Shown here piece after piece: positions 18,546 to 62,263 of a stretch of 64,000 nt of DNA (positions are counted from its first letter, which is position 1; every line of letters starts with the position of its first letter). The notes below the pieces were generated by a model. It had not been told where the DNA came from, ran no database searches, and saw nothing but the letters and a program-made list of their open reading frames with translations. This DNA comes from a virus. A program made the position numbers and the translations under genes. The stretch is from IMG/VR virus record IMGVR_UViG_3300042542_004852. One strand, 5' to 3'.

Positions 18546-19187
18546 TTATGCATTAATAAGAACGCAGATTTCTCTGCCCCAAAGCGTTTTCATTTTGTCC
18601 AACACACCGCTGAGCCAATATTTATTGATGCCGCGAGGATCATTGCCTGCGCCAACTGGACAGTAGATTTGCTGGATTTTTTTAACAGTATAATTTCTGC
18701 CGCCGCAATACATTTTGCCGCCAAGAAGTTTGCCTGCATACTTCACGCACGCATCCACAGAATCAAAATAATGATATTTTCCCCGCAAATAAATACCAAA
18801 AACATTATTTCGTTCGCGAGAGAATTTACTGTTGCCGTTTGCTGATTCGTGCATGGCGATTGCTGCAAGAACAATTGGGCAAATGTCATTGTCTCGCGCC
18901 ACGTTAATGAATAAGTCTCCCTTGTCTCGCAAAACGCCTTTTAAAAACATATTTAATCGAGCACCAGTAACAACACTGTGCTGACGAGCATCGTAGCTTT
19001 CTGAAACTGCAACAAACTTGACTGGCTGAGCTTTATTCGTTGACTGCTTTATCTTTGAAACCATTCCTCTGAATGCTTCAAGCAAAGAAATCTTTTTGGG
19101 CGTTTCAGCGTCTTGTGCATGCGAAAATGAAACTGCTGCAACAATGATGCTCATGAGAGCAAAGAAGAGTATTGTGATTTTTTTCAT
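18546..19187 (-). CDS. Secreted glucosaminidase/lysozyme-like peptidoglycan hydrolase
   Basis: Signal peptide, AIAMHESANG...NNVFGI and YCP...W motifs (GH73-like). Confidence 0.7.
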   Translation of the reverse strand: MKKITILFFALMSIIVAAVSFSHAQDAETPKKISLLEAFRGMVSKIKQSTNKAQPVKFVAVSESYDARQHSVVTGARLNMFLKGVLRDKGDLFINVARDNDICPIVLAAIAMHESANGNSKFSRERNNVFGIYLRGKYHYFDSVDACVKYAGKLLGGKMYCGGRNYTVKKIQQIYCPVGAGNDPRGINKYWLSGVLDKMKTLWGREICVLINA

Positions 19188-19377
19188 GAGATGAGTTTGG
19201 TTAATGCTTTCGACGCACTAACCTAACCCAAGAAAGACCACTGTCAACTTTCTTTTCTCAACTTGCGGCGAAAATATTGAATGCTTGGATGAAACCAAGT
19301 GCAAGCATTTTTTAGGCACGCTCCGCCGTTTGAGTGATCTTTTAGCGTTGCACCGCAGTCACATTTGGTGTTTGATT

Positions 19378-19638
19378 TTAGTTTTCTGGCTTTTTTTTCC
19401 ACGACAAAAGTTTATTTAAATACTTTTTACGCTTTGAACATCCGCACTCTTTGAGATTAAACCAAGATTTAAATCTTTCTTCTGTGATTCCAAACTGTGT
19501 GAGCACAGTTTCTACCAAGTCGCCTAATCCAGCTTGATCATTTGTCTCTAAAGAAATATTTTGTTCTTCGAGGCGCTGAATAACCTCGTTCATTTCTTTT
19601 TGAATTTTTGAGTTTTCTTGTTGCTCTTCTGGAGTCAT
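19378..19638 (-). CDS. Small phage protein (GLGD...CGC..RK family)
   Basis: GLGDLVE...ECGCSKRKKYLN. Confidence 0.65.
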   Translation of the reverse strand: MTPEEQQENSKIQKEMNEVIQRLEEQNISLETNDQAGLGDLVETVLTQFGITEERFKSWFNLKECGCSKRKKYLNKLLSWKKKPEN

Positions 19639-19639
19639 A

Positions 19640-20113
19640 TTAAAGATTGTTGACGAAGAAATCGCGATAGTTTTTTATTTCGCGACTTATTAGTCTTTTG
19701 TTATCATTATAATCAGAATGCATAATAAAATCAACATCGTTTGAGTGTGGCAATGCAAAAACATGACCAAATTCATGCAGTGCAGATGATCGGAGGTCAT
19801 ATCCAACGCCAAGAAATTTGCGCCAACCACCAACATGCCACGGTTCGCGACTGTCGAAAGAGATTTCCCATTGGCGAGGATTTTTAAATGTGCGACATTC
19901 AGCGATTCTGTTGGGATGGAGTTTTTTATCAATTTTATTGTCAAAAGAGATGCGTATTTGAAGATTGCCGCTTCCTTCTTTTAACTCTACTAAGCCTTTC
20001 ATGCAAAGATTCCACTCATTCGCGGCGAGGCGAATAGCGGAAAGAATTTTTTCGTTAGAAAGGTTTTTGGGTTTCCAGATTGGTAAATAAGTCCAGTGAA
20101 CAATGTCGCTCAT
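19640..20113 (-). CDS. Matrixin-like (M10) zinc metallopeptidase
   Basis: HEFGHVFALPHS plus a Met-turn (IMH). Start MSDIVH is 8 nt after GTGTAA. Confidence 0.8.
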   Translation of the reverse strand: MSDIVHWTYLPIWKPKNLSNEKILSAIRLAANEWNLCMKGLVELKEGSGNLQIRISFDNKIDKKLHPNRIAECRTFKNPRQWEISFDSREPWHVGGWRKFLGVGYDLRSSALHEFGHVFALPHSNDVDFIMHSDYNDNKRLISREIKNYRDFFVNNL

Positions 20114-20133
20114 GAATTTATTTACACTAAAAA

Positions 20134-20222
20134 TGGTAGTTGGCGCTGGTAACGATCCAGATGGGATAAAATCCAACACGGATTATGAGTCCGCCGCTAC
20201 CGCCTGGCAGCCCCCGCCAACT
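20134..20222 (-). tRNA. Non-canonical 8/4-fold (Sec/allo-tRNA-like) tRNA with CAU anticodon
   Basis: 8-bp acceptor AGTTGGCG/CGCCAACT, 6-bp D stem with 4-nt loop, loop CT-CAT-AA, long variable arm, 4-bp T stem, ACCA end. Confidence 0.8.
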
Positions 20223-20340
20223 AAAAAATTATTAAAATTATGAAGGTTTCGGCGACTCCTACAAACGCGCTTTTATGTTTGAGCAATTTCCCTATTTGGC
20301 AGCGGGGACACAAAAGACTGAGCCAAAATTATCAAAAAGA

Positions 20341-20427
20341 TGGTACCGATAGCCAGGATCGAACTGGCAAGGAGTTTCCTCCAGCAGATTTTAAGTCTGC
20401 TGTGTTTACCTATTTCACCATATCGGC
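20341..20427 (-). tRNA. tRNA-Leu(UAA)
   Basis: Canonical class II cloverleaf, loop CT-TAA-AA, CCA end. Confidence 0.93.
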
Positions 20428-20569
20428 TTTGATTCTATTAAAGATCAAAAGTTTTCTAACTTCGGACGGCGAAGCGTCTTGGAACAACTCTATTATACTC
20501 TAGCTTTTTTGTTTGTCAAGGATTGATTATCTTTCATAATCATTGTGTATATTTAAAAAAGGAGTTTTT

Positions 20570-20992
20570 ATGATTATTCTCGTCACAGGAAAAAACGGAT
20601 CAGGAAAAAGTTATTTCTGCAAAAGGTTCTTGCAGCAATGTTATGCTGTTCATTTTAATAATGATTTTATTCGTAACCTGACCAATAATCAAGACTTTTC
20701 AATGGAAGGCCGCATTCTTGCGGCAAAAAACATGAGAAAAGCTGTTGATGAGAGCAGTGCAGTGGTCAAACTTGTTGACATGATTTGCCCAACAAAAGAA
20801 TTGCGCGAAATCATTGCTCCTGATGTTATTGTTTACATCAAGTCGGACGCTGCATCAAAACATAGTGACACTGACTCTCTTTATCAAGAGCCTACCCCTG
20901 ATGAAGCAAAATATTTCTTTAGTTGCTTCACTCGCAAAAGTGATCAGCTTGTTGATCGTGTTGTGTATTGGCTGTATAAGAATCCTCAGTAA
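20570..20992 (+). CDS. Adenylylsulfate kinase (CysC)-like P-loop kinase
   Basis: GKNGSGKS, NDFIR...DFSMEGR, ICPTKELRE, YQEP. Confidence 0.65.
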   Translation: MIILVTGKNGSGKSYFCKRFLQQCYAVHFNNDFIRNLTNNQDFSMEGRILAAKNMRKAVDESSAVVKLVDMICPTKELREIIAPDVIVYIKSDAASKHSDTDSLYQEPTPDEAKYFFSCFTRKSDQLVDRVVYWLYKNPQ

Positions 20993-21070
20993 ATTCTTCG
21001 CCGTAATCAATTTCCCATTCTCTCACAGAGAGAAGAGAGTATTCGTCGTTGGTATTTTTTTCGGTTTGAT

Positions 21071-21829
21071 TCATTGTTTTACTCTATTTTGAATTAAATT
21101 AGTTTCTGCGAGAGAAATAAGTGTGGCTTGTGCGCTTTTGTCATAATAGGCTGTTTCAAGCCATTTTTCGCGCCAAAAGATTTTGCCGCTGATTGATTTT
21201 AAATCTTTTTTAATCTCTTCGTCCGAATATCCTTTTTGTTTAAGAATTGGAGCAAGAGGCATGAAGCTTGGCGCTAGTGTTGGCGAGGGACCGCTCTCAT
21301 ATTTAAAGTTCTTGATTAAATCAAGAACCCAAGTCTTTTGAATCTTTCCGCCAGGACATGTTTTGGTTGTTTTAGGATCGTCGCGATGAAACAATACAGT
21401 TTTGTCATTCACTGGAAGCTTTAGCCAATCCAGCAACATTTTTGTTGCGGCTGCGGTTGTTTTCCAGCACTCAAAACCTCTGCCCTTTTTAGGGTCTTCA
21501 TTGTCATAGTCTCCAAGAACTTCAATCCCAATTGAGGAACGATTAAAACTAGAAGCATGAACGCCAGTTTCAGTTAGCGGAGTCATGCCCCAAACTTGAT
21601 CGTCGTCAATGAAAAGATGAGGCCCACTTTTCCATCCAAGTTGATTGGAATAAAAACTTTTTAAATTCTCAAGATGTTTGGCCAAAAAACCATCTGGTCT
21701 TTGGCTAAGTGATGGAGCAGCGCAGTGATGCAAGCACACAGCTTTTGCCCACGACGGAGCTTTAATTGAATTTAAATATTGGGAGAAACCTTCAACTGTC
21801 CAGACTTTACCAGTGTTATTAAATGACAT
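21071..21829 (-). CDS. N-acetylmuramoyl-L-alanine amidase (endolysin)
   Basis: LHH...PHLFID...GVHA...SIGIEVLG...FHRD...KTCPG zinc-amidase motifs. Confidence 0.85.
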   Translation of the reverse strand: MSFNNTGKVWTVEGFSQYLNSIKAPSWAKAVCLHHCAAPSLSQRPDGFLAKHLENLKSFYSNQLGWKSGPHLFIDDDQVWGMTPLTETGVHASSFNRSSIGIEVLGDYDNEDPKKGRGFECWKTTAAATKMLLDWLKLPVNDKTVLFHRDDPKTTKTCPGGKIQKTWVLDLIKNFKYESGPSPTLAPSFMPLAPILKQKGYSDEEIKKDLKSISGKIFWREKWLETAYYDKSAQATLISLAETNLIQNRVKQ

Positions 21830-22016
21830 ACATTAATAGTAACAAATTGGATGAAGTTTTAAACCCAAGCAATCCGTTTGCCGCACAATGCTCTCGCAGG
21901 GGCGACCTGCATCCACTTCTGTAAGAGCATTGTTAATTTCCGTCATTTGGGTAACACCCTCCCTTGCGGGAGGCAGCGCCATCGGGATTTTGCTTGTGGC
22001 AGCGCGGCAGTTCGGA

Positions 22017-22376
22017 TTACCTGCGTTCCGAATTGGAGGGTTCATCAGCAGGTGAGTCATTCCCCTCCAAAAGTTTTTTAAGATTTTCCAAGACTCGGTT
22101 TTCAGTTTTATTGCGTTGATCAAGTGTTTCAGTTTCACAAAATTCTTGAATTTTTTCGGCTAATAGATTTTGTAATCTTTTTTCTGCTTCTTGGTAAGTA
22201 TTAAAACACTGTGCTATCTCTCCCAAAAGATAACCATGATGGCTCAATCGCCACTCTGATTTTTTGTAGGTAGAGAAGTTTTTTTCAATATAAAAGTGAC
22301 AGTCACGATCTTTATGATGACTGCCGCCGATTAATTCATACCATAGTTCGAGCAGATTTTTGGTGAAGGCTTGCAT
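22017..22376 (-). CDS. Hypothetical protein
   Basis: ORF with its own N16 promoter. Contains HHKDRDCHF. Confidence 0.6.
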   Translation of the reverse strand: MQAFTKNLLELWYELIGGSHHKDRDCHFYIEKNFSTYKKSEWRLSHHGYLLGEIAQCFNTYQEAEKRLQNLLAEKIQEFCETETLDQRNKTENRVLENLKKLLEGNDSPADEPSNSERR

Positions 22377-22409
22377 GGGTGACTAATTATACCAGCAAAG
22401 CTCTTCTTG

Positions 22410-23645
22410 TCAAGCTAATAATGAAGATATTGGTTTCCCCTTGTCAGCAATCTTGAATGGTCGCCCTTCTGGAGAGATTAAAATCTGTTCAATTGGCAAA
22501 CCAGCAGCAGCCGCGATTGTAGCATTAAAATCTTGCGGCGAAACAATGCCGTCTAACACTCTCATGCCTTTCTCATCGCTCTTGCCATAGACTTGACCAC
22601 CTTTGATTCCTGCGCCAATCAAAGCACTAGAAAATGCGCCAGGATGATGATCGCGCCCATCATTAACATTAATAATTGGAGTGCGGCCAAAGTCTGTGGT
22701 GATCACAATAAGAGTTTTCTTCAACAAGCCAGAAGCTTGCAAGTCTTCAATTAGTGCAGTGAGAGCAGTGTCCAACACCATTAATTTATCTTCTAAAGCG
22801 TCAAAATTATTAACATGAGTGTCCCAGCCACCGTCTGAAACTTCGATAAACTTGCACCCACCTTGTTCAACAAGTCTCTTGGCAAGGCAAACGCCTTGAC
22901 CGAAACGATTGTTGCCATATTTTTCTCGCTTCTCTGCGGATTCTTTGGTGAGGTCAAAAACATCAAGTTCGGAAGAGTTGAGCAAACGAACAGTTTGATC
23001 GTAGAATTCTGCGTAGCTCTTCTCTGATGGATTTGCAGCCTTCATCGCATCACGTTCAATCTTCTTTAAGATTTCAATGCGCTTGCTGAATTCATCTTTG
23101 TTTTTGATTTTTGCGTTTTCCAAACCGCGAAGAGGGTCTTGGATTGGAATGGGAGAATATTTCTTAGCCATCCAACCTGCGCCAGGATGATCTGCGGGAC
23201 CACCAATTAAAACATTTTGTGGGATGTTGATTTTTTCTTCATTGTCTTGCATTCTGCACATCCAAGCTCCCATGTTTGGGTGAATGATTGTGCCAATCTT
23301 CTTGTAGCTTGTGCGCTGAAGGTATTGAGCTTGTTCATGCGCTCCTGTGTTTACCATCATGCTGCGAATTAGTGCCATTTTATCACCGTGTTTGGCGAGT
23401 TTTGGCAAGTGTTCGCTGATAGAATAGTCTGCGTTTGTATTAATAGAATTAAATTTGCCCTTCACTTCTGCATCTTTTTTAGGATCAAAAGTATCAAGAT
23501 GGCTCATTCCGCCATTCATAAACAAATAAATAATGTGTTCTGCTTTGTTGGCAGATTGCGCAGCATGGATTTCTGGTAGCACAGAAACGCCTAAACCTGC
23601 ACTGGCTAGACGAAGAACGAAGTCACGACGATGGATAGAGTTCAT
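22410..23645 (-). CDS. DUF1501 protein with Tat signal (PVC-type, alkaline phosphatase/sulfatase-like fold)
   Basis: RRDF Tat motif, IYLFMNGGMSHLDTFDPK, GWDTH, TDFGRTP, GRDHHP, GIKGGQVYGKSD. Confidence 0.92.
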   Translation of the reverse strand: MNSIHRRDFVLRLASAGLGVSVLPEIHAAQSANKAEHIIYLFMNGGMSHLDTFDPKKDAEVKGKFNSINTNADYSISEHLPKLAKHGDKMALIRSMMVNTGAHEQAQYLQRTSYKKIGTIIHPNMGAWMCRMQDNEEKINIPQNVLIGGPADHPGAGWMAKKYSPIPIQDPLRGLENAKIKNKDEFSKRIEILKKIERDAMKAANPSEKSYAEFYDQTVRLLNSSELDVFDLTKESAEKREKYGNNRFGQGVCLAKRLVEQGGCKFIEVSDGGWDTHVNNFDALEDKLMVLDTALTALIEDLQASGLLKKTLIVITTDFGRTPIINVNDGRDHHPGAFSSALIGAGIKGGQVYGKSDEKGMRVLDGIVSPQDFNATIAAAAGLPIEQILISPEGRPFKIADKGKPISSLLA

Positions 23646-23649
23646 GGGA

Positions 23650-25419
23650 TTAATTAGAGAATTTAAATTCAGTTGAATTGAGAAGTGCCCAAATAACGTC
23701 GTCGTCATTTGCGCCAAGGAATGTGGCTTTTTCAGATAGCGTTGGCTTGCGGCTCAAAATGCTTTTGTAAATAACTTCCATCTTTTCAGAGGGAGACTTG
23801 CCAACCAAAGACTTTATTAAAGTTGTTTCTTTGTTTGTGGCAACGCTGGCAAGCTGCCCATTCATGAAAGAGATGACTTGAGTCACTGAACCTTCCAAGG
23901 AAGATGTTTGAATGAGTTCTCGATCACTGCGGCCAAGCTGCGCAAGAATAGTATTTGTTTGATTGGCATCATTGATTTCAGAAGCTCTTGCAACAACAAT
24001 GTTAGTGATCTTTGGCGCAAGAGAGTATTTTTCGCGCATGATTTGATTGTATTTTTCCAGCTTCATTCTCATCTTCTCTAACGAAATGTCTTCAATGGTT
24101 GTTAGCATATTTTTTGAGTATTCAGTATGAAATTCTGTTTTATATTTTTCGGGACTCTCAACGCAAAGAGCCACAACAGAATCCCAAAGCTGTTCAGCAG
24201 AAAGCCTGCGCTTCACTGGACCAATAAAAATAAACTTTTCACTATCAGAGAAGGCTCCGCTGTATGTTTGCTGCTGAAAGAGTTTCGTGTTGCATAAAAC
24301 AAATAAAAACTTTTGGCTGTCATAGTTTAAATCAACAAAAATATTGGCTAACGTGTTCATTAGTTCGCTGTCTAAAGCGTCACTGTCATGAATGTTGTCA
24401 TACTCTGAAATGATGTATTTGCCAAAAATTAAGTTCCAGTAGCGATTCACAATGTTCTTTGTGAAGGTGGGATGGTTAGGGTTGCAGAGCCAAGCCACTG
24501 CATCTTGTCGCAAATCTTCTTTGTTTTTAATCTTTCCTTTGCCATCAAGAGTGCTTGGAGCAACAACATCGTTTGGTTTCGCGTCTTTGTATTGGTAATC
24601 GTGAGGAAGTTTTAATTCTTTTGCTGCGACAATTTCAAGATCAGATTGAGTTGCGCGAACAAAGTTATTGATTTGATTGTTTAAGCCGCGATTCTTTACA
24701 GGATCGCTCTTGATGAGAGCATCAATGGTTTCTCTCAAGGTTTTGATCTTTTCGCGTGTTTCTTTTGATTCTTTTGGACGAAGCTCAACTTGATTGAACA
24801 TTGCAGCCATTTTGTAGAACTGCATTTGCGTGAAGTCTTGGAAAGGATCATCGTGGCACTGTGCGCAGCTAATGTCTGTGCCTAAAAATACTTTGTTTGT
24901 GGCAATCAAATTATCAAGAGGCATTCCTACATCTCTGTAGTAGTAACCAGTGGCGGGACTAGAGTAGTAATTGCCAGAGCTTAAGAGTAAATCTTTAACA
25001 AATAAATCGTATGGTTTGTTTGCCGCGATGCAGTCTTTGACGTAATCAATGTAGGGACCACCATTAAAATTATTGATTGGCGAAAGCTTTTCGCGCATTC
25101 TAAGACTGTCTGCCCAAAAATTAAACATGTGCGAAACGTGGCCAGGATGTTTTAATAGGTGCTTGATTAATTGTGTCTTTTTATCACTGGCAGAAGCTTC
25201 AAAATACATTTTGTGCTCTTCAAAAGTTGGATTGCGGCCAATGATTGTCAAGTATGCTCGGCGTAAAAAAACCTCTTCGCTCACTGGGGGAAGAGGTTGG
25301 ATTTTAGAGTTTAAACATTGTTTTTCGAGCACAGCGTCAATCTTTAAAGAAGAGAGGTTCAAATCAGCGCAGAAACTCCATGACACTAGACAAAACAAGA
25401 TTAAAAGTATTTTTTTCAT
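23650..25419 (-). CDS. DUF1549/DUF1553 (PSCyt2/PSD1) protein
   Basis: FLRRAYLTIIGRNPT, FLGTDISCAQCHDDPF, IVNRYWN, RRLSAEQLWDS, WALLNSTEF. Has a signal peptide. Confidence 0.92.
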   Translation of the reverse strand: MKKILLILFCLVSWSFCADLNLSSLKIDAVLEKQCLNSKIQPLPPVSEEVFLRRAYLTIIGRNPTFEEHKMYFEASASDKKTQLIKHLLKHPGHVSHMFNFWADSLRMREKLSPINNFNGGPYIDYVKDCIAANKPYDLFVKDLLLSSGNYYSSPATGYYYRDVGMPLDNLIATNKVFLGTDISCAQCHDDPFQDFTQMQFYKMAAMFNQVELRPKESKETREKIKTLRETIDALIKSDPVKNRGLNNQINNFVRATQSDLEIVAAKELKLPHDYQYKDAKPNDVVAPSTLDGKGKIKNKEDLRQDAVAWLCNPNHPTFTKNIVNRYWNLIFGKYIISEYDNIHDSDALDSELMNTLANIFVDLNYDSQKFLFVLCNTKLFQQQTYSGAFSDSEKFIFIGPVKRRLSAEQLWDSVVALCVESPEKYKTEFHTEYSKNMLTTIEDISLEKMRMKLEKYNQIMREKYSLAPKITNIVVARASEINDANQTNTILAQLGRSDRELIQTSSLEGSVTQVISFMNGQLASVATNKETTLIKSLVGKSPSEKMEVIYKSILSRKPTLSEKATFLGANDDDVIWALLNSTEFKFSN

Positions 25420-25493
25420 AAGCCTTTAGTATTTTACACTTTTTAAAAAGGTTTTGAAGCGTGCAATCTTTCAACATAAGTGTAAAAATAATT

Positions 25494-26723
25494 ATGCCTC
25501 CAACGCCAACGCCAACGCCGCCACCTCCAACGCCACCTCCAACGCCGCCGCCGCCACCTCCAACGCCGCCGCCGCCACCTCCAACGCCGCCGCCGCCACC
25601 TCCAACGCCGCCGCCGCCACCTCCAACGCCGCCGCCGCCACCTCCAACGCCGCCAACGACATACGGTTATACTGGAACAGACTGCAATGGTGGTTCTATA
25701 ACGATTTATACTTATCAGCCTAGTTTTTCCGCTAATGATACGGCTTATTCTGATTCAGGCGGGGCATCTCCTTACAGTGGTTATTTCATTTACAACGGAA
25801 GCGTTTATTCATACACTGGTGGCACTAGCACACTAGTAACTTCTTACAGTAATAGCGTGTCAGAATGCGCTGGTGGTACAATAACGATTTATACTGCTGA
25901 AGGTCCAGCATTTAACGTTAGCTATACTGCTTACACTAATGCGTGTTTAACTACGCTTTTTAATGGAGCTATTTTTAACGGTGGAAATAATTACAAATAT
26001 TCGAGCGGCGTTGCTTCTCAGTCCTATAGTTATGTTGGAACGCTCTGCAATGGCTCTCCTGTTACGATCTATACTAGTCAATCTAGTTTTTCCACTATCA
26101 GCACTGCTTTTGCTGATGAGTGTTTAACTACGACTTACGCTGGATTTTTTATTTACGGTGGAGTTGCTTATTCTTATTCAAGCGGTAATGGTTCTCGATA
26201 TTCTTACGCTCATGTTGGAACAGATTGCAATGGCAATTCTGTGACGATTTATACAACTTCTGCTATTTGGTCCGATACTGATACTGCTTATTCTGATCAG
26301 TGTCGTACAACAACCTATAGTGGATATTTTATTGCTAGTGGAGCGGTAGCGGTTTATTCTTATTCTAGTGGCATCGCCTCTTTAAGCTCTTGCTCAACAC
26401 CGCCGCCACCACCAACGCCGCCGCCAACGCCGCCGCCGCCAACCCCAACGCCCCCTCCAAGTCCAGTACCATCTTACACCAATCCCAACATTCTAAAAGC
26501 AGACATCCATTCAAGCTACGAAACTGGCTCTGGAGCTTGGCAAACTTATAGAGCTAATGTGACTGGATTGTTTGTTTCAAATTCTGGCGCAAACAGAGCA
26601 GACTATCGCGATCACCTTATTAGAGAATTTAATCGTAAAATCAGCATTTTAAATCAGCCCACGGGATTGTTTATCAGGCCGTTTGACGATGGTTTTAGGT
26701 TTACGGGAACTTCAGTTTATTAA
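25494..26723 (+). CDS. Pro-rich repetitive probable virion protein
   Basis: (TPPPPPP)n N-terminus, four Tyr/Cys repeats of about 50 aa (GTDCNG..TIYT), a second Pro tract, and a C-terminal domain shared with the next gene. Confidence 0.7.
   Translation: MPPTPTPTPPPPTPPPTPPPPPPTPPPPPPTPPPPPPTPPPPPPTPPPPPPTPPTTYGYTGTDCNGGSITIYTYQPSFSANDTAYSDSGGASPYSGYFIYNGSVYSYTGGTSTLVTSYSNSVSECAGGTITIYTAEGPAFNVSYTAYTNACLTTLFNGAIFNGGNNYKYSSGVASQSYSYVGTLCNGSPVTIYTSQSSFSTISTAFADECLTTTYAGFFIYGGVAYSYSSGNGSRYSYAHVGTDCNGNSVTIYTTSAIWSDTDTAYSDQCRTTTYSGYFIASGAVAVYSYSSGIASLSSCSTPPPPPTPPPTPPPPTPTPPPSPVPSYTNPNILKADIHSSYETGSGAWQTYRANVTGLFVSNSGANRADYRDHLIREFNRKISILNQPTGLFIRPFDDGFRFTGTSVY
25539..25643 (+). repeat. Five perfect 21-bp tandem repeats (coding PTPPPPP)
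   Basis: CCAACGCCGCCGCCGCCACCT five times. Confidence 0.95.
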
Positions 26724-26732
26724 TTTTAAAAT

Positions 26733-27593
26733 ATGACACTTTACTATATAGATCAAGGTTCAGGGCTTTGGAATGATCCTGACAACTGGTTTCAAAACGA
26801 AGCTGGAACTATTCCTAATGGCCTTGTTCCAAGTCCACTTGATGATTGTGTAATTAATGCTGGTAATACTGCTGATGAGTTGATTGGCACACATAGTAGC
26901 GTTGTCAACAATGGCACAATCATTCAAAACTTCGATGCCATCACTATCAACAACGGCACCGTCAACTACAATGGCAGCACCGTTGAAGCCAACAATGGCA
27001 CTATTGATGCCAACGACGGAATCGTTGACACTAACGATGGCACTGTCACTGTCAATAACAACAGCGGCACCGTCATCTTCAACTACAACACTGTCGTCAA
27101 CAACAACGGTACGGTCACTTCCAACTACTACAACAGCATCCTCACCGTCAACAACAACAGCATCACCTACAACTACGGCACCGTCACGACCAACAACAGT
27201 GGCGGCACCATTGATACTAACGACGGCACTATTGACAACAACAACGGTACCGTCAATTACAACTCCAGCGAAGGCACAGTAACCAACAACTGTGGTACCA
27301 TCATTACTAATGAGGGTTTTGCTGGCCCATGTCCCACATCGTCTTATACTAATCCCAATATTTTAAAAGCTGACCTTCATGCGAGCTACGAGACTGGCCT
27401 TGGAACTTGGCAAAATTATCGCGCTAACGTGACTGGATTGTTCGCAGCGAATTCTGGAACTAATCGAAGTGATTACCGCGATCACCTTATTCGAGAATTT
27501 AATCGTAAAATTAGCGTTTTAAATCAACCAACAGGTTTGTTTATCAGACCGTTTGATGATGGTTTTAGATTTACGGGAGTTTCAATACAATAA
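26733..27593 (+). CDS. Beta-solenoid (NNGT-repeat) probable virion protein
   Basis: GLWNDPDNW...VPS..DD autotransporter-like start, NNGT(V/I) repeats, shared C-terminal domain. Confidence 0.7.
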   Translation: MTLYYIDQGSGLWNDPDNWFQNEAGTIPNGLVPSPLDDCVINAGNTADELIGTHSSVVNNGTIIQNFDAITINNGTVNYNGSTVEANNGTIDANDGIVDTNDGTVTVNNNSGTVIFNYNTVVNNNGTVTSNYYNSILTVNNNSITYNYGTVTTNNSGGTIDTNDGTIDNNNGTVNYNSSEGTVTNNCGTIITNEGFAGPCPTSSYTNPNILKADLHASYETGLGTWQNYRANVTGLFAANSGTNRSDYRDHLIREFNRKISVLNQPTGLFIRPFDDGFRFTGVSIQ

Positions 27594-27622
27594 AAAAGGG
27601 CGGGATTTCTCCCGCCCTTTTT
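27593..27622. terminator. Bidirectional terminator
   Basis: AAAAAGGGCGGGA-TTTC-TCCCGCCCTTTTT between convergent genes. Confidence 0.9.
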
Positions 27623-27637
27623 CTTAGTTCTTACTTC

Positions 27638-28636
27638 TTAGTCTTCCAAGTCAATCTCTAGTCCTTCATCTCCTTCGCTCCAGAAGTATCCAAGATCATC
27701 AAGCGCTTCCAGCACTCGATTCTTTGAAGGGTATTCAGGAGAGAAACTGTTCTGGACTTTGCGAACAGTCACAGAGGAGTAACCTTTCTTCTTTACGCCC
27801 TCAAGATACTTATCAACGCGATCCAAAAAATCACAGCGACTCTGAACAGTTTCGTTCTGCAAAGGTTCATTGCTTTCGTCAACAACAGGAGCTTTGATTT
27901 CCTGCTCAAACACAGAAACAACCTTGTAAGCTGAAACTCGGCACTTTTGGCAAGAGTAGTCCTTTGGAACGCTCACAACGTCCTTTGGATTCACCTTGAC
28001 CACCACAACAGAACCATGAGCAAAGTCGCGAGCATAGTCGAGACTGCCAACATGAAGACCAAATGAACAATGGTGATCGCGATTGTCGTCAACATCGCGA
28101 CGTTTCACTTCAATCTCTGCGCCAACAGTGTTGAGAATGCGGCCACGTTCATCTACAATGCCTTTAACAACCTTGGTTGCCTTGTTGCCACTGATGCTCC
28201 AGAAATCGTTTTCCAAGCCCTTATAAGCAAGGAAACAGCCATCCTCAGTGATGGGGAGTTCCTTGTAAGCAAGGAATTCATAGAGTTCATTCACAGAAGA
28301 GGCAGAAGGATTGTCTTGAAGGTTTTGCCAAAACTTCTCAAACAAATTGAGCGGCAAACCTTCACGATGAATGGATCGCACCTTGTCTGCAAGAGCTTTT
28401 GGAAGAGTTTCGCCCTTGTAGAGAACCTCTTCTGGAGAGATTTTAAATCCATTCTTTTCAACACGCTCAGCAGTCTTTTCGAGCGCTTTGCGAATTGCAG
28501 CTTCTTGCTGATTTTCGGGAAGGTCAAATGCCTCAATGATTTTGGCGTATTGATTGGAACCCTTCTCGAATTTGATGGGCTTGTTGTCGAGGAACAGGAC
28601 AATGCCTGCGTTGTTGATGATGTATGAGAAGTTCAT
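27638..28636 (-). CDS. rIIB: rIIB-like protein
   Basis: NPS...ELYEFL...PITEDGCFLAYK...CSFGLHVG...VKVNPKDVVSVP.DY...KCRV. Confidence 0.88.
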   Translation of the reverse strand: MNFSYIINNAGIVLFLDNKPIKFEKGSNQYAKIIEAFDLPENQQEAAIRKALEKTAERVEKNGFKISPEEVLYKGETLPKALADKVRSIHREGLPLNLFEKFWQNLQDNPSASSVNELYEFLAYKELPITEDGCFLAYKGLENDFWSISGNKATKVVKGIVDERGRILNTVGAEIEVKRRDVDDNRDHHCSFGLHVGSLDYARDFAHGSVVVVKVNPKDVVSVPKDYSCQKCRVSAYKVVSVFEQEIKAPVVDESNEPLQNETVQSRCDFLDRVDKYLEGVKKKGYSSVTVRKVQNSFSPEYPSKNRVLEALDDLGYFWSEGDEGLEIDLED

Positions 28637-28676
28637 AATTCTGTTATTATAGTTTGGGTTGTGGGTTTGTCAAGGA

Positions 28677-30617
28677 TTATTTAAGGCGAAGAATGGTGCG
28701 AAGTTCTTTGCGAGAAATGCGAGGGCTTTTCGAGTAGTAAAATGAGCCGCTATCATGCATGGTTCCCATAATTTTGCCGCGAATAGAAGTTTCTTTTCTG
28801 ATCTTATCAAATACACAGTTTGCTTTGACGCTGAATTTAGCATTGCGCTCTGCTTTTTTAGCCAAGGCATCAATGACATCAACGCTCAAAAATGGCTTTC
28901 TAAGATTGCTGATGTTTTGGGCAATGTTTCTTTTTTCATTCTCAAGTTGAGCCACTTGTTCATGCTTATTCTTATATTCTTCACTATCTGCATCAAGAAA
29001 ACCAAGGGAGATTAGGTTCTTGTACATGTTTGCACCGCGAACAACTGTAGTGGTGCAGCAAGAGTTTGAATTGGACTTTTTAACCGTAAACGCATTGAGT
29101 TTTCGCAAAGAATCAAAAGTCATTTCACTAATGTTTTGCTTAGCTTGTGCAATGTTGCTGACGGATGCCAAATTATCATGCATGCTGCAAATATTATTAT
29201 AAACGCCCAAAGCATCCAAGTGAAGGTTTCTATAGTTGCCTGATTTTTCTTTCAAGGAAACAGAGAAAGGAGTTTCCATAGATGGATTGGCTTTGGTTCT
29301 TTCAGTTTTTGGCAAACCAAAGATGCTGCTTTTCACATTGCGCGTTTCAAAGATTTCATTAATCTTTTTCGTATCGCATTCTTCCAAATCCTTTGAGCAG
29401 ATTAGGTAGTATTTTTTGCCATTTTTAATAGCGAAAGAGCTAAACTTCTCTCTCCAATATTCGAGAGTTCTGCGAGATTTGATGATGGCGCAGACTGGTT
29501 TGTTTTTGAACTTTTCAAAATCTGTTGCGCTGCCAATAACAGAAACACCTTGCACAAAAGGATAAATATCTTTATAAGCGTTCTTTTTATGAGATTGAAA
29601 ATGTTCGCTTTCAACATAAACATTGTCCCGATCTTTGATTAACTCTTCTAAAGACATTGGCTTGACAGCCTTGATTTCTTCTTGAGCAGCTTCGACAACT
29701 GCTGCTTCAATAGCGCCAATAACACGATTGTTGCTAGCAGTGTTTTCGAAATTCTCACGCGAGATTGGCAAACTCATAGTTCCAATCGGAACATCAACAC
29801 ACAACACAGTCTTTTCTTTAAGATAAGGTGTTTTCAAAATTGATGCAATGGAGCAATATTTATAAGTCACATTGCCCATCTTAATGTGAAGATTGTTTGG
29901 TTCGAAGACGTTTGCCGATATTTGGAAGAATCTGAAAGTGAAACCATTTTTTTCAATTTGCGACAGCGGCTTCATTGCTTCAATGCGCCCGTTCCAATCT
30001 TCAAAAACAATATTGGCCGAGCAGTATTCTACAAAACGAATGCCTTTTTGTTTAAAATTGTTGATGTCCGAAGAGGATTTAATTTCCAAATAAACTTCCA
30101 AGCCAGTCTCTTGAGTGGCATCTTCACTCACTTTCAAGATGTGACCAACAGGAACGCCACTGTTTCCGCCGCCCAATGCACAAGCATAGAGCGTGCAAAC
30201 GCCATTGTGGTAGCTTTTGATATAGAAAGTATCAGTGTAGCAGTGCGCTGCTTTGGAACCAATGCCAAAACCGCCGATTTGCTCATTATCGCCGCTCTTT
30301 GTGCTGCGAAAATACATGCCAAACACATTGCGAATATCATGCTCGCTCAAACCCTTGGCAAAGTCGCGAACAAAAAAGATGCTTGAGTCTCCTTCATTAC
30401 GAATACCAATCTCTACTGCTTTCTCAATCTTATGCTTTTTATGCTCGTCAAGAGCATTGCAAGCGTATTCGCGCACAACAGCTTGAACTTTGTCGCTGTA
30501 AATCTTGTCGCGAAGATAATAAGATGCCATTTCTGAACCTTTAGCGTCCATTCCCATGACGGAAGAAGACATGTTTTCAGAAGTGATGAGAGGGTTTGCA
30601 ATTGTTTGTGTTTTCAT
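28677..30617 (-). CDS. rIIA: rIIA-like protein (GHKL ATPase N-terminus)
   Basis: IYSDKVQAVVREYACNALD, DFAKGLS, STK, IGGFGIGSK, ISRE. Adjacent to rIIB. Confidence 0.88.
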   Translation of the reverse strand: MKTQTIANPLITSENMSSSVMGMDAKGSEMASYYLRDKIYSDKVQAVVREYACNALDEHKKHKIEKAVEIGIRNEGDSSIFFVRDFAKGLSEHDIRNVFGMYFRSTKSGDNEQIGGFGIGSKAAHCYTDTFYIKSYHNGVCTLYACALGGGNSGVPVGHILKVSEDATQETGLEVYLEIKSSSDINNFKQKGIRFVEYCSANIVFEDWNGRIEAMKPLSQIEKNGFTFRFFQISANVFEPNNLHIKMGNVTYKYCSIASILKTPYLKEKTVLCVDVPIGTMSLPISRENFENTASNNRVIGAIEAAVVEAAQEEIKAVKPMSLEELIKDRDNVYVESEHFQSHKKNAYKDIYPFVQGVSVIGSATDFEKFKNKPVCAIIKSRRTLEYWREKFSSFAIKNGKKYYLICSKDLEECDTKKINEIFETRNVKSSIFGLPKTERTKANPSMETPFSVSLKEKSGNYRNLHLDALGVYNNICSMHDNLASVSNIAQAKQNISEMTFDSLRKLNAFTVKKSNSNSCCTTTVVRGANMYKNLISLGFLDADSEEYKNKHEQVAQLENEKRNIAQNISNLRKPFLSVDVIDALAKKAERNAKFSVKANCVFDKIRKETSIRGKIMGTMHDSGSFYYSKSPRISRKELRTILRLK

Positions 30618-30661
30618 CGTGAGTTAATATACTGGCAAAATAGTGTTTGTCAATCAGAAAT

Positions 30662-45647: not shown

Positions 45648-46313
45648 TTAATATAGATATTTGAAAGTGTCAATGTCTTTTTCAAAAATTTTTTCAATTA
45701 TCTTTTTCGTGTTCGAATTGTAATAATCTTTATAATTTGATCTTTTGCTTGAGTTTTCGTGAGGAATATCTGAACTAATATGCCCGATTTCACAAGCATC
45801 TAGCATTTCTTTAAAATCATTTTTAAGATTTTCAAAACGCAAAATAAAGTTTGGCTGAAATACTCCGTTGAGCCATTCAACTTGTTGATGAATGCCAATA
45901 AAGTCTTTTGTGTTATTCGCATGATTTTCTTCCATAATTTCGCAAAAATCTTCAAAAGAAATATCGCTAGAATGATTGTATAAATCTCCAAGCTCATTTT
46001 CTTTGGCAAATTGAAACATGGACACTGCTCGATCAAAAGGATTTCTCACAACAGCAAATGACATATAATTTTTAACTAAATTGCCAAAAATACCATAAAT
46101 TTCATTTGGTTTGGCATGCGTTGGAGAAAAGCGTTTTTTATAAAGTTTATTTCTAAATAGAGCGTCATTAAAAAATTTTTCATGCTTCTTGATTAAGTTA
46201 AAATCACCAAGATGAGAATAAATGGAAGTGCTTGCGTTTTTAGGAATACGAATAAAAATTACGCTCCAAATCCATTTATGACTACATGGAGTAAACTCTA
46301 GCATTTTGGCCAA
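45648..46313 (-). CDS. Sulfotransferase family 2 protein
   Basis: 5'PSB IRIPKNASTS, 3'PB VRNPFDRAVS, FILRFENL. Confidence 0.85.
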   Translation of the reverse strand: MAKMLEFTPCSHKWIWSVIFIRIPKNASTSIYSHLGDFNLIKKHEKFFNDALFRNKLYKKRFSPTHAKPNEIYGIFGNLVKNYMSFAVVRNPFDRAVSMFQFAKENELGDLYNHSSDISFEDFCEIMEENHANNTKDFIGIHQQVEWLNGVFQPNFILRFENLKNDFKEMLDACEIGHISSDIPHENSSKRSNYKDYYNSNTKKIIEKIFEKDIDTFKYLY

Positions 46314-56827: not shown

Positions 56828-57283
56828 TCATATTTTTTTAATATACGATTCAGTATCTTTTTTAAATCCCATTTTTTGATAAATTTTCTTTAATCTTTCA
56901 GACGTTGGGTAGTTTTCAACGCAGTTCATATTAACGTATTTTATTCCTTTGCTTTTTGCAAATTTGATGGCCTGATTATATAATGCAAATGTTTTTTTAG
57001 GATTTTTACTAATCCAAAAATATTCCGTAAATATTCTTTGATTCAAGAATGGATGAATGCTATTTATAAACATAATCATGCCGTCTGCTAATCCATTTTC
57101 AAAATTTGCCCAGCAACAAATACTACTATTTAATAATGTTGAATGAGCAAAAGAATCAATAACAGACTGAGCATTGATGGGCAGATATGCATGACCATAT
57201 TTAGTATTCTCTTCTTTAAAGAGAGCTTCTAAATCTCTAAAAGCTTTTTCAAACTCTTGGCCAGATGTGACCTTTTTAATCAT
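56828..57283 (-). CDS. GNAT-fold acetyltransferase-like protein
   Basis: EYFW...AIKFAKSKG...IYQKMGF. Confidence 0.6.
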   Translation of the reverse strand: MIKKVTSGQEFEKAFRDLEALFKEENTKYGHAYLPINAQSVIDSFAHSTLLNSSICCWANFENGLADGMIMFINSIHPFLNQRIFTEYFWISKNPKKTFALYNQAIKFAKSKGIKYVNMNCVENYPTSERLKKIYQKMGFKKDTESYIKKI

Positions 57284-58014
57284 TTAGATACAATAGAAAG
57301 AAGTTTGCGGCTTTCTTTGATTGGAATATCTTCAAAAGAATTCCAATTTGCAGCTTCTTCATTTTTGTATGTTTCGTCTTTCCATAGTTTTCTCAAATGC
57401 TTTTTGAAAGCTTCGAAATCATCGCAGCCAAGGTTTTGTTTGGCAGAGTTTTTAAGAGCGCTCTGTGGTGTCAGGGATTGAACGATTGACTCGCTCTCTT
57501 CGTAAGCGACTTTATTTTTAGACTTATCAATTTCATCATCACCAACAATATGAATATTAAGATAATTGCGAACAGAGCGAACAAAAGCACGATTTTCAGC
57601 AATAGGTTCCAAAAACTTAACGCCAAATCCAGAACAATTTTCAGAAGTTGCGTTTGCTGTGCTAGTAAATGTTTGAGCATTGCCGTCGCTTTCATAATTT
57701 GGCATCCAACTAATAGAGCAAACTGCTGTGGCATAATGGGAAGAGATTGTTTCAATTTTAAATTGAACGTCAAGGAAGCCCCTGAGTCTTGCTAGTTCTT
57801 TGATGCCAGCTAGCTTAACAAGAAGCTGATGATCACCAAGACCTTCAATAGAGTCTGGCACTTGAAGTTTGCGAGTTTCAAACCAATCCTTGTTAGGGTA
57901 CAAATGCTCTGGCTTAATCATTGCTCGCCAGTTAATTGAGCCATCTTCGTTGAATTTATATTCAACCCCGTCAATGAGGCCGAGTTCGTTACGCTTATAT
58001 TTGTTAGGATTCAT
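57280..58014 (-). CDS. Rad52/Sak-like single-strand annealing protein
   Basis: ATAVCSI...STANA...IAENRAFVRSVRNYLNI...DEID pattern. Confidence 0.5.
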   Translation of the reverse strand: MNPNKYKRNELGLIDGVEYKFNEDGSINWRAMIKPEHLYPNKDWFETRKLQVPDSIEGLGDHQLLVKLAGIKELARLRGFLDVQFKIETISSHYATAVCSISWMPNYESDGNAQTFTSTANATSENCSGFGVKFLEPIAENRAFVRSVRNYLNIHIVGDDEIDKSKNKVAYEESESIVQSLTPQSALKNSAKQNLGCDDFEAFKKHLRKLWKDETYKNEEAANWNSFEDIPIKESRKLLSIVSK

Positions 58015-59167
58015 AAATAAAATAGTGATCTAGGTCTGTCCAGAAAGACTCATTATAGATCACATCAGAAGCTCTGTCAACAAAAACTTTGTCTAAATCA
58101 GCATGAGCTTTAGAAGCATAACGTTTACCGTTTGAAAAAATATCTTTTTTGGTCAAAAATTTTAAGTTCGAAATCTCGGAAAGATTTTTAATCTTTTCTT
58201 GATTTGAGGGTTCATCAAGTTCAACTCTAAAATCAAAGTAAAAATTTCTAATTTCAGAAATCTGATCTTTGTTTTTTGTGCTGCATAAAATTTCTAGCCC
58301 AAGATTTTTAATAGACTCAAGATATTCGTTACTAAAATCAGTTGTGTTTTCTAGATGAAAAGTAATTTTTTTAATATTCTTTTTACATTTAGATAAAAGT
58401 TGTATGCTAATTGGTTTTGCAGAAATAATATGGCAATCGTAATTTGAGCACCAAGCCATTAAATTATTTTCGTTATGAAAATAATCCATTCTAATATTAA
58501 TGAGCCTATTTTTTAGTTCTTCTGCAAAACCATAAAAGTTAGGAACGACTTCTATAACTCCCTGAGAGTAAGACTCTCCAATGAATTTAGTATTAATGCT
58601 TTTGGTGTATGGAATCTTTAGCAATTCACAAATATTTTTAACAATATCTTCTGGCTTAATTGTATTGATTGATTTCGGCTTTTCGTGATAGCTGTAACTT
58701 GGTTTGCGACCATTTCGATCTGCTTCTAAAATCCGAACCTTACTTGGAGTGCTCCAGTATGGATAAGCATGACTTGGATAAATGTGAGAATAAAGAACAA
58801 CAATTGGAATATCAAAAGCACTCGCTTGATGAATCGGGAAGCTGTCAATGCCCAAGTGAAGACTTGAATTTTTAACAATGTATGATGTCTGTTTCCTTGA
58901 AAAACCAAGGAAAGATTTGTCAACAAGTGGCAATTGCGGGTCTTCTCCGCCACCAATTTGATAAATTTTATATCCCAATGGGTGCAAGAGATTTTTTAAA
59001 AGCTCTATGGCTTCTGGAAAGAATTCATAAAATTTAGAATCAATTTTGTTATCAATGTGAACAGTAATATATTTGTCATCAATAACGGGAATATAATGGG
59101 TTGGAAAAATAGGTTTACCAATTTTAACGCCCAAGTTTTTAGCGTATTCTTCGACTAGATGCGACAT
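58004..59167 (-). CDS. GT9 (heptosyltransferase-like) glycosyltransferase
   Basis: YQIGG...LHLGIDSFPIHQASAFDIPIVVLY...IKPEDIV. Confidence 0.75.
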   Translation of the reverse strand: MSHLVEEYAKNLGVKIGKPIFPTHYIPVIDDKYITVHIDNKIDSKFYEFFPEAIELLKNLLHPLGYKIYQIGGGEDPQLPLVDKSFLGFSRKQTSYIVKNSSLHLGIDSFPIHQASAFDIPIVVLYSHIYPSHAYPYWSTPSKVRILEADRNGRKPSYSYHEKPKSINTIKPEDIVKNICELLKIPYTKSINTKFIGESYSQGVIEVVPNFYGFAEELKNRLINIRMDYFHNENNLMAWCSNYDCHIISAKPISIQLLSKCKKNIKKITFHLENTTDFSNEYLESIKNLGLEILCSTKNKDQISEIRNFYFDFRVELDEPSNQEKIKNLSEISNLKFLTKKDIFSNGKRYASKAHADLDKVFVDRASDVIYNESFWTDLDHYFIYES

Positions 59168-59168
59168 A

Positions 59169-61058: not shown

Positions 61059-61059
61059 G

Positions 61060-61518
61060 TTATTCTGTGGCTTGAGCTTTTGATTCAAAAATCTTGACTA
61101 AACAGGTTTCGAGAAACACTCTGAGAGTTTCAGCTTCTGCGAGTTCAACACCCATGCCAAACTTCTGATTGCCATTACGGGAAACAGAAAAAGAAAAAGC
61201 ATCAGCGCCGTCTTTTTTCTTGTATCGAGTCCAAGAGATTTGAGTCTTGTTTTCTTCAAATGAATGGAACGCTTTCCATTCGCTATAAGTGCGAATAGCA
61301 TGGATGAGTCCACCAATTTCATTTTCGTTGATCTTGATGGCAATGGTCTTCTCTGGGTTCTCGCGATTACCAGAGAATGATCCATTCTTGGTTTGTTCAT
61401 TCCAAGAGAATTGCTGAATGCCGTTGACGTAAACTGTTGGTTGTCCCTTATTAGAAAGCTGGAAAGAGAAAGCGCATCCAGTGTTTTTACTGTTTGGTTT
61501 ATAGAAGGCTAAATTCAT
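61060..61518 (-). CDS. Probable ssDNA-binding protein (Whirly/PC4-like)
   Basis: FYKPN...FSF beta-rich repeat with a C-terminal helix. Fold guess only. Confidence 0.4.
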   Translation of the reverse strand: MNLAFYKPNSKNTGCAFSFQLSNKGQPTVYVNGIQQFSWNEQTKNGSFSGNRENPEKTIAIKINENEIGGLIHAIRTYSEWKAFHSFEENKTQISWTRYKKKDGADAFSFSVSRNGNQKFGMGVELAEAETLRVFLETCLVKIFESKAQATE

Positions 61519-61599
61519 ATAGGATAGTAAAATAACACCAATTAAAGTCCATAATTTAACTTAAAAAGTTAATTCATTAATTTTTAAATATTTTTATGC

Positions 61600-62262
61600 T
61601 TATTGCAAAATAATTTTAGGAAATTTATTAATTTTGCTTTCTTTTTTAGAAGCGTTATAGACATTAATTCCTAATTTTTTAGAAATTTCTAATGCTAAAT
61701 TGAACTTTTCAATTAAATAATCTTCTCCTAGTCTAAGTGGGTCTGGCGTACCGTGGCCGTAGAAAAAATCTTCATCAAAATCTTGAAAAAATCTTTTTGA
61801 CCACTCTTCTATTGTTTCATTTTGATCTTTTAAAAAATTATTTTGAGGACTGGGCTTGTTATTTTCAAGCCATTTTTTTGTTTTATCCTTATTATAATCA
61901 TGATCGAATCCAAGTAAATATACATTAGATGGTTTTAATGCTCCAAAAATCCAATACAAACCTTGAAAAAATGTTGTATATCCAACGTAATGAAATGGAG
62001 ATTTTTGATTTAAATCAAGCTTATTATTAATTAAATCTTTAATTGTTGATTCGTATTCTAAATACGAAATTTCATTTTTAAAATTTATTTTTGATGGAAA
62101 ATTTTCTCTTGGAAAGTCCACAGGATGAATCCAATAATCAAATAATTCATTCCCATCAAAAAGTCTCCAAGCGTTATTGGCGCAAATAATTGTATATTTT
62201 TTTTTATCAATAGAATGAATTAATTTAGCAGATTGACCGCTTCCAATATAAATAATATCCAT
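61600..62262 (-). CDS. DUF115/MAF-like glycosyltransferase-associated protein
   Basis: IGSGQS...ICANNAW...VYLLGFDH...VYNAS. Confidence 0.6.
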   Translation of the reverse strand: MDIIYIGSGQSAKLIHSIDKKKYTIICANNAWRLFDGNELFDYWIHPVDFPRENFPSKINFKNEISYLEYESTIKDLINNKLDLNQKSPFHYVGYTTFFQGLYWIFGALKPSNVYLLGFDHDYNKDKTKKWLENNKPSPQNNFLKDQNETIEEWSKRFFQDFDEDFFYGHGTPDPLRLGEDYLIEKFNLALEISKKLGINVYNASKKESKINKFPKIILQ

Positions 62263-62263
62263 T

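Follow-up and report, generated by a model that had tools for sequence, protein, structure and literature searches.

A stretch of viral DNA of 64,000 nucleotides, termed the window here (IMG/VR record IMGVR_UViG_3300042542_004852), carries at positions 22410-25419 two adjacent genes that are a hallmark of Planctomycetes-Verrucomicrobia-Chlamydiae (PVC) bacteria, the first encoding a PSCyt2-PSD1 (DUF1549/DUF1553) protein and the second a DUF1501 protein. By sequence comparison we show that this two-gene cassette is genuine, functional and phage-encoded. We further show that within the PVC 'PSCyt2-PSD1 + DUF1501' module it represents a separate, phage-associated clade, which has resided for a long time in large tailed phages, uncultured and from lakes and oceans, and has been exchanged between them. 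These carriers are of two types, the window's own lambda-tailed lineage of ~140 kb and deep-branching T4-like phages of 170-225 kb. On balance we favour an explanation in which the domesticated phage cassette specifies an exported hydrolase pair, with the helical protein as partner, and confers an auxiliary benefit. The cellular module was already known though uncharacterised (PMC3542564; PMC5615132); what is new is its phage-borne, minimal and monophyletic version.

The gene pair

A sequence-only reading of the window had described an intact operon with a signal peptide and a CxxCH motif in the first gene and a twin-arginine translocation (Tat) signal and full DUF1501 motifs in the second, and all of these elements were recovered. 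Two co-oriented minus-strand open reading frames (ORFs) lie at exactly these positions, 23650-25419(-) and 22410-23717(-). The listed TTG start of the second is probably wrong, the true start being an ATG at 23645, which leaves a gap of 4 nt after the stop codon of the upstream partner gene.

Gene 1 (23650-25419, minus strand) encodes a protein of 589 aa, predicted to be exported, in which PSCyt2 (DUF1549, PF07583; E = 1.7e-35, 123.3 bits against a Pfam cut-off of 29.8, residues 26-212) precedes PSD1 (DUF1553, PF07587; E = 4.3e-24, 85.7 bits against a gathering threshold of 28.5, residues 304-567), both domains scoring above their gathering thresholds. Its N-terminus, MKKILLILFCLVSWSFCA, combines Lys-Lys with a hydrophobic stretch and by inspection is of the type recognised by the general secretory (Sec) pathway, with a signal peptide or signal anchor at about residues 1-20 (25360-25419, minus strand). 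Residues 2-37 form a single helix in the AlphaFold2 (AF2) model; cleavage of the peptide is therefore only putative. The only CxxCH heme-c-type motif of the protein, CAQCH at residues 185-189 (codons at 24853-24867, minus strand), is invariant at all five positions (C185, A186, Q187, C188 and H189) in an alignment of 52 phage and cellular homologs. Pfam gave no match to PSCyt1 at E <= 0.01, and gene 1 is thus a minimal form with neither this domain nor a carbohydrate-binding one.

Gene 2 (22410-23645, minus strand) encodes a DUF1501 protein of 411 aa (PF07394; E = 3.5e-97, 326.4 bits against a cut-off of 27) that covers positions 1-389 of the 390 in the Pfam profile. From the ATG at 23645 its N-terminus reads MNSIHRRDFVL, with the twin-arginine motif HRRDFV at residues 5-10 (codons at 23616-23633, minus strand), from which export is predicted; R6 is conserved in 93% and R7 in 91% of 86 homologs. 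Neither protein matched anything in NCBIfam.

Carriers and evolutionary history

That a phage should carry a PVC hallmark is odd a priori, and this, together with a GC gradient along the window, raises the question of whether host DNA was misassembled onto phage DNA, or whether the pair lies in the host flank of a prophage. We consider this explanation effectively refuted. Assemblies from ENA, JGI and Logan include 18 contigs that encode a DUF1501 protein identical to that of the window, and the six of these that were read are colinear with the window across both junctions at 98.7-100% identity, one of them spanning positions 33158 to 17098. Relatives from three further metagenomes, at ~80% DNA identity, have the same gene order. 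Since the junctions are colinear in independent assemblies, the pair is neither a chimera nor host contamination. It also lies inside complete genomes with terminal repeats, has phage genes on both sides, and with a GC content of 0.406 is as AT-rich as the surrounding phage DNA (0.407 for 14-31 kb of the window), in agreement with the sequence-only reading; no near-identical chromosomal copy was found in the 802 PVC genomes scanned, the best cellular match being 51% identical. The pair thus lies, reproducibly, in a genuine phage genome, and in the ~80%-identical relatives it is the best-conserved block (86% identity against 70-82% for its flanks).

The pair is more widely distributed among viruses than the sequence-only reading supposed. 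It is present in at least 41 IMG/VR contigs, 27 with a DUF1501 protein 53-94% identical and 14 from a marine branch. The PSCyt2-PSD1 gene lies directly upstream of the DUF1501 gene wherever upstream sequence exists, and the same gene order is seen in 40 viral and 42 cellular loci. Across the 44 viral loci compared these two genes are the only ones common to all, which argues for a self-contained cassette carried in varied genomic contexts. Two carriers, of 184.5 and 224.7 kb, are complete genomes with direct terminal repeats, and both of them encode a T4-type Gp23 (E ~1e-90), as do seven other tested contigs; in three distant carriers the pair is found among gp32, DnaB, ligase, NAMPT and NUDIX genes. 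Gp23 of the carriers is only ~34% identical to that of the nearest cultured phage, a cyanophage, the rIIA protein of the window is at most 33% identical to that of any cultured phage, and neither DNA nor tblastn searches of GenBank phages (INPHARED) gave a match to the pair. By these comparisons the carriers are phage lineages without cultured relatives.

Some T4-like carriers contain an extra, divergent DUF1501 gene that has no PSCyt partner. A 186,690-bp JGI/NCBI contig has a second DUF1501 gene, for a protein of 440 aa, ~7 kb upstream of the pair on the opposite strand, and in another locus a second copy, 28% identical, lies directly downstream of the pair (L136:9353-10531).

The relationship to cellular copies was analysed with IQ-TREE (LG+G4) on 67 rows, after removal of near-duplicates above 72-88% identity and of two fragments, and with FastTree on 134 rows. 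In the IQ-TREE phylogeny the window, all IMG/VR copies, two contigs with a phage context and 13 metagenome proteins form one clade of 22 rows with support of 100/99. No named cellular genome falls inside this clade, and the FastTree phylogeny agrees. Its sister group is not resolved among Verrucomicrobiota and Planctomycetota lineages in the IQ-TREE phylogeny. The basal lineage of the clade, P0093, has no IMG/VR relative, and the base of the 'phage clade' may therefore include an unsampled cellular lineage. The nearest named cellular copies are 43-50% identical to the phage protein, and when 802 PVC genomes were scanned, with four candidates scored per genome, the best match was 50% in 401 Verrucomicrobiota and 51% in 401 Planctomycetota genomes. 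At this level of identity the pair is not a recent host capture.

Both genes are under strong constraint, the ratio of nonsynonymous to synonymous substitution rates (dN/dS) against a 90%-identical relative being 0.09 for gene 1 and 0.04 for gene 2, with similar values in T4-like carriers. In every carrier the pair has the same GC content as the phage DNA around it (0.33-0.46; the median of cellular genes is 0.58), and its codon usage has likewise ameliorated to that of the phage. Taken together, the monophyletic phage-associated clade, the amelioration and the dN/dS of 0.04-0.09 make long domestication in phages, as proposed in the sequence-only reading, a well-supported conclusion from sequence evolution.

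Phage partner proteins have a uniform length of 587-619 aa, whereas cellular partners have 635-1110 aa, and the phage partner aligns to them only from about residue 23, right after the signal peptide, which argues that it is a minimal core. In single Planctomycetota and Verrucomicrobiota genomes (G012-G016, behind loci L046, L053, L045, L078 and L086) the Pfam cut-off for DUF1501 is exceeded by 48 to more than 100 matches, whose scores of ~500 bits, compared with 326 bits in the phage, place the phage clade at the divergent edge of the DUF1501 family. The phage version thus shares with the PVC 'DUF1501 + PSCyt/PSD1' module (PMC3542564; PMC5615132) the three Pfam domains, the position of the PSCyt2-PSD1 gene directly upstream of DUF1501, the signal peptide on the first protein, the twin-arginine motif on the second and the invariant CxxCH. 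It differs in being phage-borne and AT-rich, in forming its own clade at no more than 51% identity, in having a partner without PSCyt1, Laminin_G or F5/8-type-C domains, and in being present as one copy, with at most one extra DUF1501, per genome.

The sequence-only reading knew of no description of the pair in phages, and the searchable literature holds none: full-text searches with DUF1501, DUF1549/1553, PSCyt2 or their Pfam accessions found no report of a phage occurrence, and the sole match joining 'phage' with the family was a weak CDD note on a 61-aa ORF of a Pseudomonas phage. The presence of the pair in dozens of lake and ocean phage genomes has apparently not been reported before.

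Phage neighbourhood and control region

The phage genes on either side of the pair, noted in the sequence-only reading, could be assigned. Upstream lie rIIB (27638-28636, minus strand; PHROG 2.6e-50 and a Pfam Phage_T4_rIIB match) and rIIA (28677-30617, minus strand; PHROG 1e-59). Downstream, at 18546-22376 (minus strand), Pfam and synteny in relatives define a stretch with a 119-aa ORF, Amidase_2, tRNA genes, a matrixin-like protease and a glucosaminidase. Genes for a clamp loader, thymidylate synthase, a sigma factor, UvdE and the lambda-type tail proteins L, I and J are found elsewhere in the window. Two unannotated genes at 25461-27593(+), the first of which begins with a Pro/Thr-rich tract, run divergently from the pair; neither Pfam nor PHROG gave a match for them, and their conservation in relatives L009-L011 is 52% and 86%. 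Between rIIB and the convergent plus-strand gene that ends at 27593 lies, at 27592-27623, a strong hairpin resembling a bidirectional terminator, with a stem of 13-14 bp and T-runs on both sides. A galactose-3-O-sulfotransferase-like gene at 45648-46313(-) (PHROG 6.9e-20) adjoins tail genes, and a glycosyltransferase cluster occupies 57280-63112(-). These genes suggest that the phage modifies glycans or sulfo-glycans, which may be relevant to a DUF1501 protein resembling sulfo- or phospho-esterases.

The first 17,000 positions of the window have few ORFs of at least 100 aa under any genetic code and a GC content of 0.44-0.50, against 0.30-0.41 elsewhere; reassignment of TAG to Gln and translation table 4 were tried for this region and brought no gain. 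An IMG/VR fragment is ~95% identical to the start of the window and ends at the position matching 11870. Since no alternative code opens the region and this fragment matches it, the ORF-poor, GC-richer 1-12 kb gives no sign of chimerism.

Motif scans and conservation point to a divergent control region upstream of gene 1, at 25420-25500. An A-rich box containing GTGTAAAAT (AAAAAGTGTAAAATACTAAAGG) precedes gene 1 by 15 nt; the plus strand has a mirrored GTGTAA box (25480-25485), which serves the divergent gene. Both boxes are perfectly conserved in the 90%-identical relatives L009-L011, while the spacer between them varies, and similar boxes precede several other starts in the window. The sequence-only reading had noted a phage GTGTAA motif ahead of the pair. 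With 20 occurrences in the window against 22.5 expected, the bare hexamer shows no enrichment and has no statistical support as a phage motif; the longer A-rich box is nevertheless conserved as described. In many T4-like carriers (L012-L034) a TAAATAAT-like box is found ~10-25 nt upstream of the gene 1 start. A role as late promoter was considered for it and set aside, as no such box was found upstream of the gp23 genes of these carriers.

A weak sigma-70-like site (25458-25431) precedes gene 1. A promoter scan also found a perfect sigma-70-type promoter, TTGACA-16-TATAAT with TG, at 22386-22413 (minus strand), which probably starts the downstream unit; as it overlaps the stop codon of gene 2, the pair probably forms a transcription unit of its own. 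Three sites matching TTGACA-16-TATAAT at 12/12 positions and one at 11/12 lie at 28646-28673(-), 22386-22413(-), 20492-20519(-) and 30626-30653(-), ahead of rIIB, the 119-aa ORF/amidase unit, the tRNA cluster and rIIA, respectively, and look like phage promoters read by the host sigma-70. Unlike these four units, the pair itself is preceded by a weak site only.

Predicted functions and hosts

A biochemical function is known for no member of either family (PMC3542564; PMC5615132). Judged from its AF2 model (predicted local distance difference test score, pLDDT, 94.6), DUF1501 is by fold an enzyme of the alkaline-phosphatase/sulfatase superfamily. Structural comparison with VIA-align gave Z = 20.6 to PafA and ENPP6 and 17-18.6 to many sulfatases; the PafA/NPP-type matches (5too, 5ege and 7mw8) have Z = 19.6-20.6 and a root-mean-square deviation of 3.0-3.8 over 243-275 residues at 11-15% identity. 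Foldseek placed S1 sulfatases first, with a probability of 1.0. The DUF1501 family profile matches S1 sulfatases (E = 0.002) over a C-terminal strand that holds their Asp-His/Asn metal ligands. Ten polar residues are conserved in DUF1501 (S48, D51, D54, K56, H103, D275, H277, R321, R331 and H333), and this set would fit a metallo-hydrolase active site.

Two groups of enzymes invite comparison. With type I (formylglycine) S1 sulfatases the phage DUF1501 shares the alpha/beta fold of the alkaline-phosphatase superfamily, a weak profile similarity and periplasmic export, which for DUF1501 is predicted; identity is 10-17%, and the formylglycine motif C/S-x-P-x-R is absent at the conserved position from gene 2 and from the family. 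The only match of this type in gene 2 is CLAKR at 253, in a column occupied by Leu in 89% of family members, and gene 2 is accordingly no classical sulfatase. PafA/NPP-type alkaline phosphatases and phosphodiesterases are its best structural matches and are periplasmic or secreted metallo-hydrolases, as predicted for DUF1501, but any equivalents in it of their Thr nucleophile and two-zinc ligand set are putative, and there is no match at the sequence level. Searches of PDB by sequence gave no match for either single protein. The AF2 model of gene 1 (pLDDT 91.1) is all-helical and has no convincing match among solved folds (best Z 5.7; Foldseek E > 0.4), with no cytochrome fold among the matches; in a protein atlas it matched other planctomycete-specific domains only, with scores below 0.8.

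In the mechanism that we propose, both proteins would be exported to the host periplasm during infection. Gene 1 would pass unfolded through Sec in the manner of c-type apocytochromes, keeping its invariant CxxCH, and gene 2 would pass folded, probably metal-loaded, through Tat. These are the standard routes by which periplasmic apocytochromes and cofactor- or metal-loaded enzymes, respectively, are exported, and it is this correspondence that suggests a periplasmic two-subunit system. Gene 2 would be the catalytic subunit, a metallo-hydrolase of the alkaline-phosphatase superfamily with a phospho- or sulfo-ester as its substrate, though no formylglycine sulfatase, and gene 1 its dedicated helical partner, serving as scaffold, substrate-binding subunit or redox/metal helper. 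The pair would provide a constitutive, minimal copy of a system that the host already has in 50-100 paralogs.

As to the benefit for the phage, our first choice is a role resembling that of auxiliary metabolic genes, with release of phosphate or sulfate, or processing of esterified polymers, in the periplasm supporting replication. We put this forward tentatively, as somewhat short of an even chance; it is suggested by the independence of the cassette from context and by its position, in most cases, among replication and nucleotide-metabolism genes. Nutrient-scavenging auxiliary metabolic genes such as phoA and pstS are found in T4-like cyanophages. The pair resembles them in its host-derived and predicted exported or periplasmic function in large T4-like aquatic phages, in its purifying selection and in a composition ameliorated to that of the phage; it differs in belonging to another protein family, in being an obligate two-gene cassette and in showing no link to a pho regulon. 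Several points weigh against this proposal. Substrate and reaction are extrapolated from the fold alone, the nucleophile and metal ligands of DUF1501 are putative, heme binding by gene 1 is only putative in a protein with no recognisable cytochrome fold, and the pair showed no link to nutrient limitation, with no pho-type genes seen beside it.

Furthermore, the rII genes and cell-wall hydrolases that neighbour the pair in the window fit a role at the cell envelope equally well. The exported enzyme might strip or modify phospho- or sulfo-groups on host surface polysaccharide, lipopolysaccharide or periplasmic polymers, and so block superinfection, stop progeny from re-adsorbing to debris or aid lysis. 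In the window lineage the pair lies between rIIA/rIIB and the cluster of amidase, matrixin-like protease and glucosaminidase, the window encodes the sulfotransferase-like protein and several glycosyltransferases, and envelope-modifying enzymes of the LtaS, EptA and PbgA type share the fold of gene 2 (Z 15.6-16.4). However, these membrane-anchored enzymes score below soluble phosphatases and sulfatases, no third gene co-occurs with the pair, and the neighbourhood is specific to this lineage, other carriers placing the pair among replication and nucleotide-metabolism genes. The envelope remodelling or superinfection exclusion put forward in the sequence-only reading is thus not established, and we consider it unlikely to be the role of the pair.

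Electron transport has been proposed for the cellular module (Kamneva et al., 2012; PMC3542564). By extension, the CxxCH protein could be a true c-type cytochrome that exchanges electrons with DUF1501, the two forming a periplasmic oxidoreductase that aids host energy metabolism. The invariance of CAQCH agrees with this, as does the combination of Sec for gene 1 and Tat for gene 2, which matches the routes of apocytochromes and cofactor-loaded enzymes. A redox module is nonetheless improbable, and more so than an envelope role: no cytochrome fold is detected in the confident model of gene 1, the phage form is without the PSCyt1 cytochrome domain, and DUF1501 has the fold of a hydrolase superfamily, with no known redox members among its matches.

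The sequence-only reading took the pair to point to the host. This is not established by the pair itself, whose sister group may lie in either Verrucomicrobiota or Planctomycetota; the reading that needs the fewest assumptions is a PVC host, which also fits the phage tRNAs. We consider it probable that the host is a member of Planctomycetota or Verrucomicrobiota, as suggested by the 48 to more than 100 DUF1501 copies per PVC genome and by nearest cellular homologs that are all from PVC bacteria. The phage encodes tRNA-Leu(UAA) and tRNA-Arg(UCU), and 25% of its Leu codons are TTA and 36% of its Arg codons AGA, against 4% and 6% in PVC DUF1501 genes; tRNAs for codons that are frequent in the phage and rare in PVC genes are the pattern expected of an AT-rich phage in a GC-richer host.

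Against such a host it should be noted that the sister group of the phage clade is unresolved, that phage GC contents of 0.30-0.46 are far below those of typical PVC genomes, and that DUF1501 occurs outside PVC bacteria, in some Bacteroidota, Acidobacteriota and Proteobacteria (PMC3542564), as well as in a Caulobacter control in this analysis. The pair might then be no host marker at all, having been captured once from a PVC bacterium and now being carried by phages of low-GC hosts outside the PVC group, such as Bacteroidota or other heterotrophs of fresh or marine waters. The distance between carrier GC and the PVC DUF1501 gene median of 0.58, the existence of the family outside PVC bacteria, and the spread of one monophyletic clade across unrelated phage types, implying transfer from phage to phage, are all in line with this scenario. 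We regard it as the less probable one, with odds clearly below those of a PVC host: the closest named cellular homologs are all from Planctomycetota or Verrucomicrobiota, the tRNAs for TTA and AGA suggest a host poorer in those codons, and an exported module that depends on partners is easiest to use where the system is native. A PVC host remains our preferred reading, and overall the balance tips, by a modest amount, towards the phage-specific minimal clade being a widespread auxiliary cassette of large uncultured lake and ocean phages that infect Planctomycetota or Verrucomicrobiota.

Few unexplained gene expansions in Planctomycetes and Verrucomicrobia are as large as that of the DUF1501 + PSCyt/PSD module. 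In many phage lineages from two biomes, strong purifying selection maintains a single, stripped-down pair of it, so that one pair appears to be a self-sufficient functional unit, and the activity of the system, whatever its nature, may be limiting during infection. At 589 + 411 aa and with no accessory domains, the phage version offers a compact two-protein target for biochemistry and structure determination. To our knowledge, almost no phages are known for PVC hosts, and the pair is a plausible handle by which many uncultured aquatic phages of 140-225 kb could be linked to them. If the carriers do infect PVC bacteria, these phages would have in the cassette their first host marker at the level of a gene, and the cassette would be the simplest form found in nature of a system that has been without an assigned function since 2004-2012.

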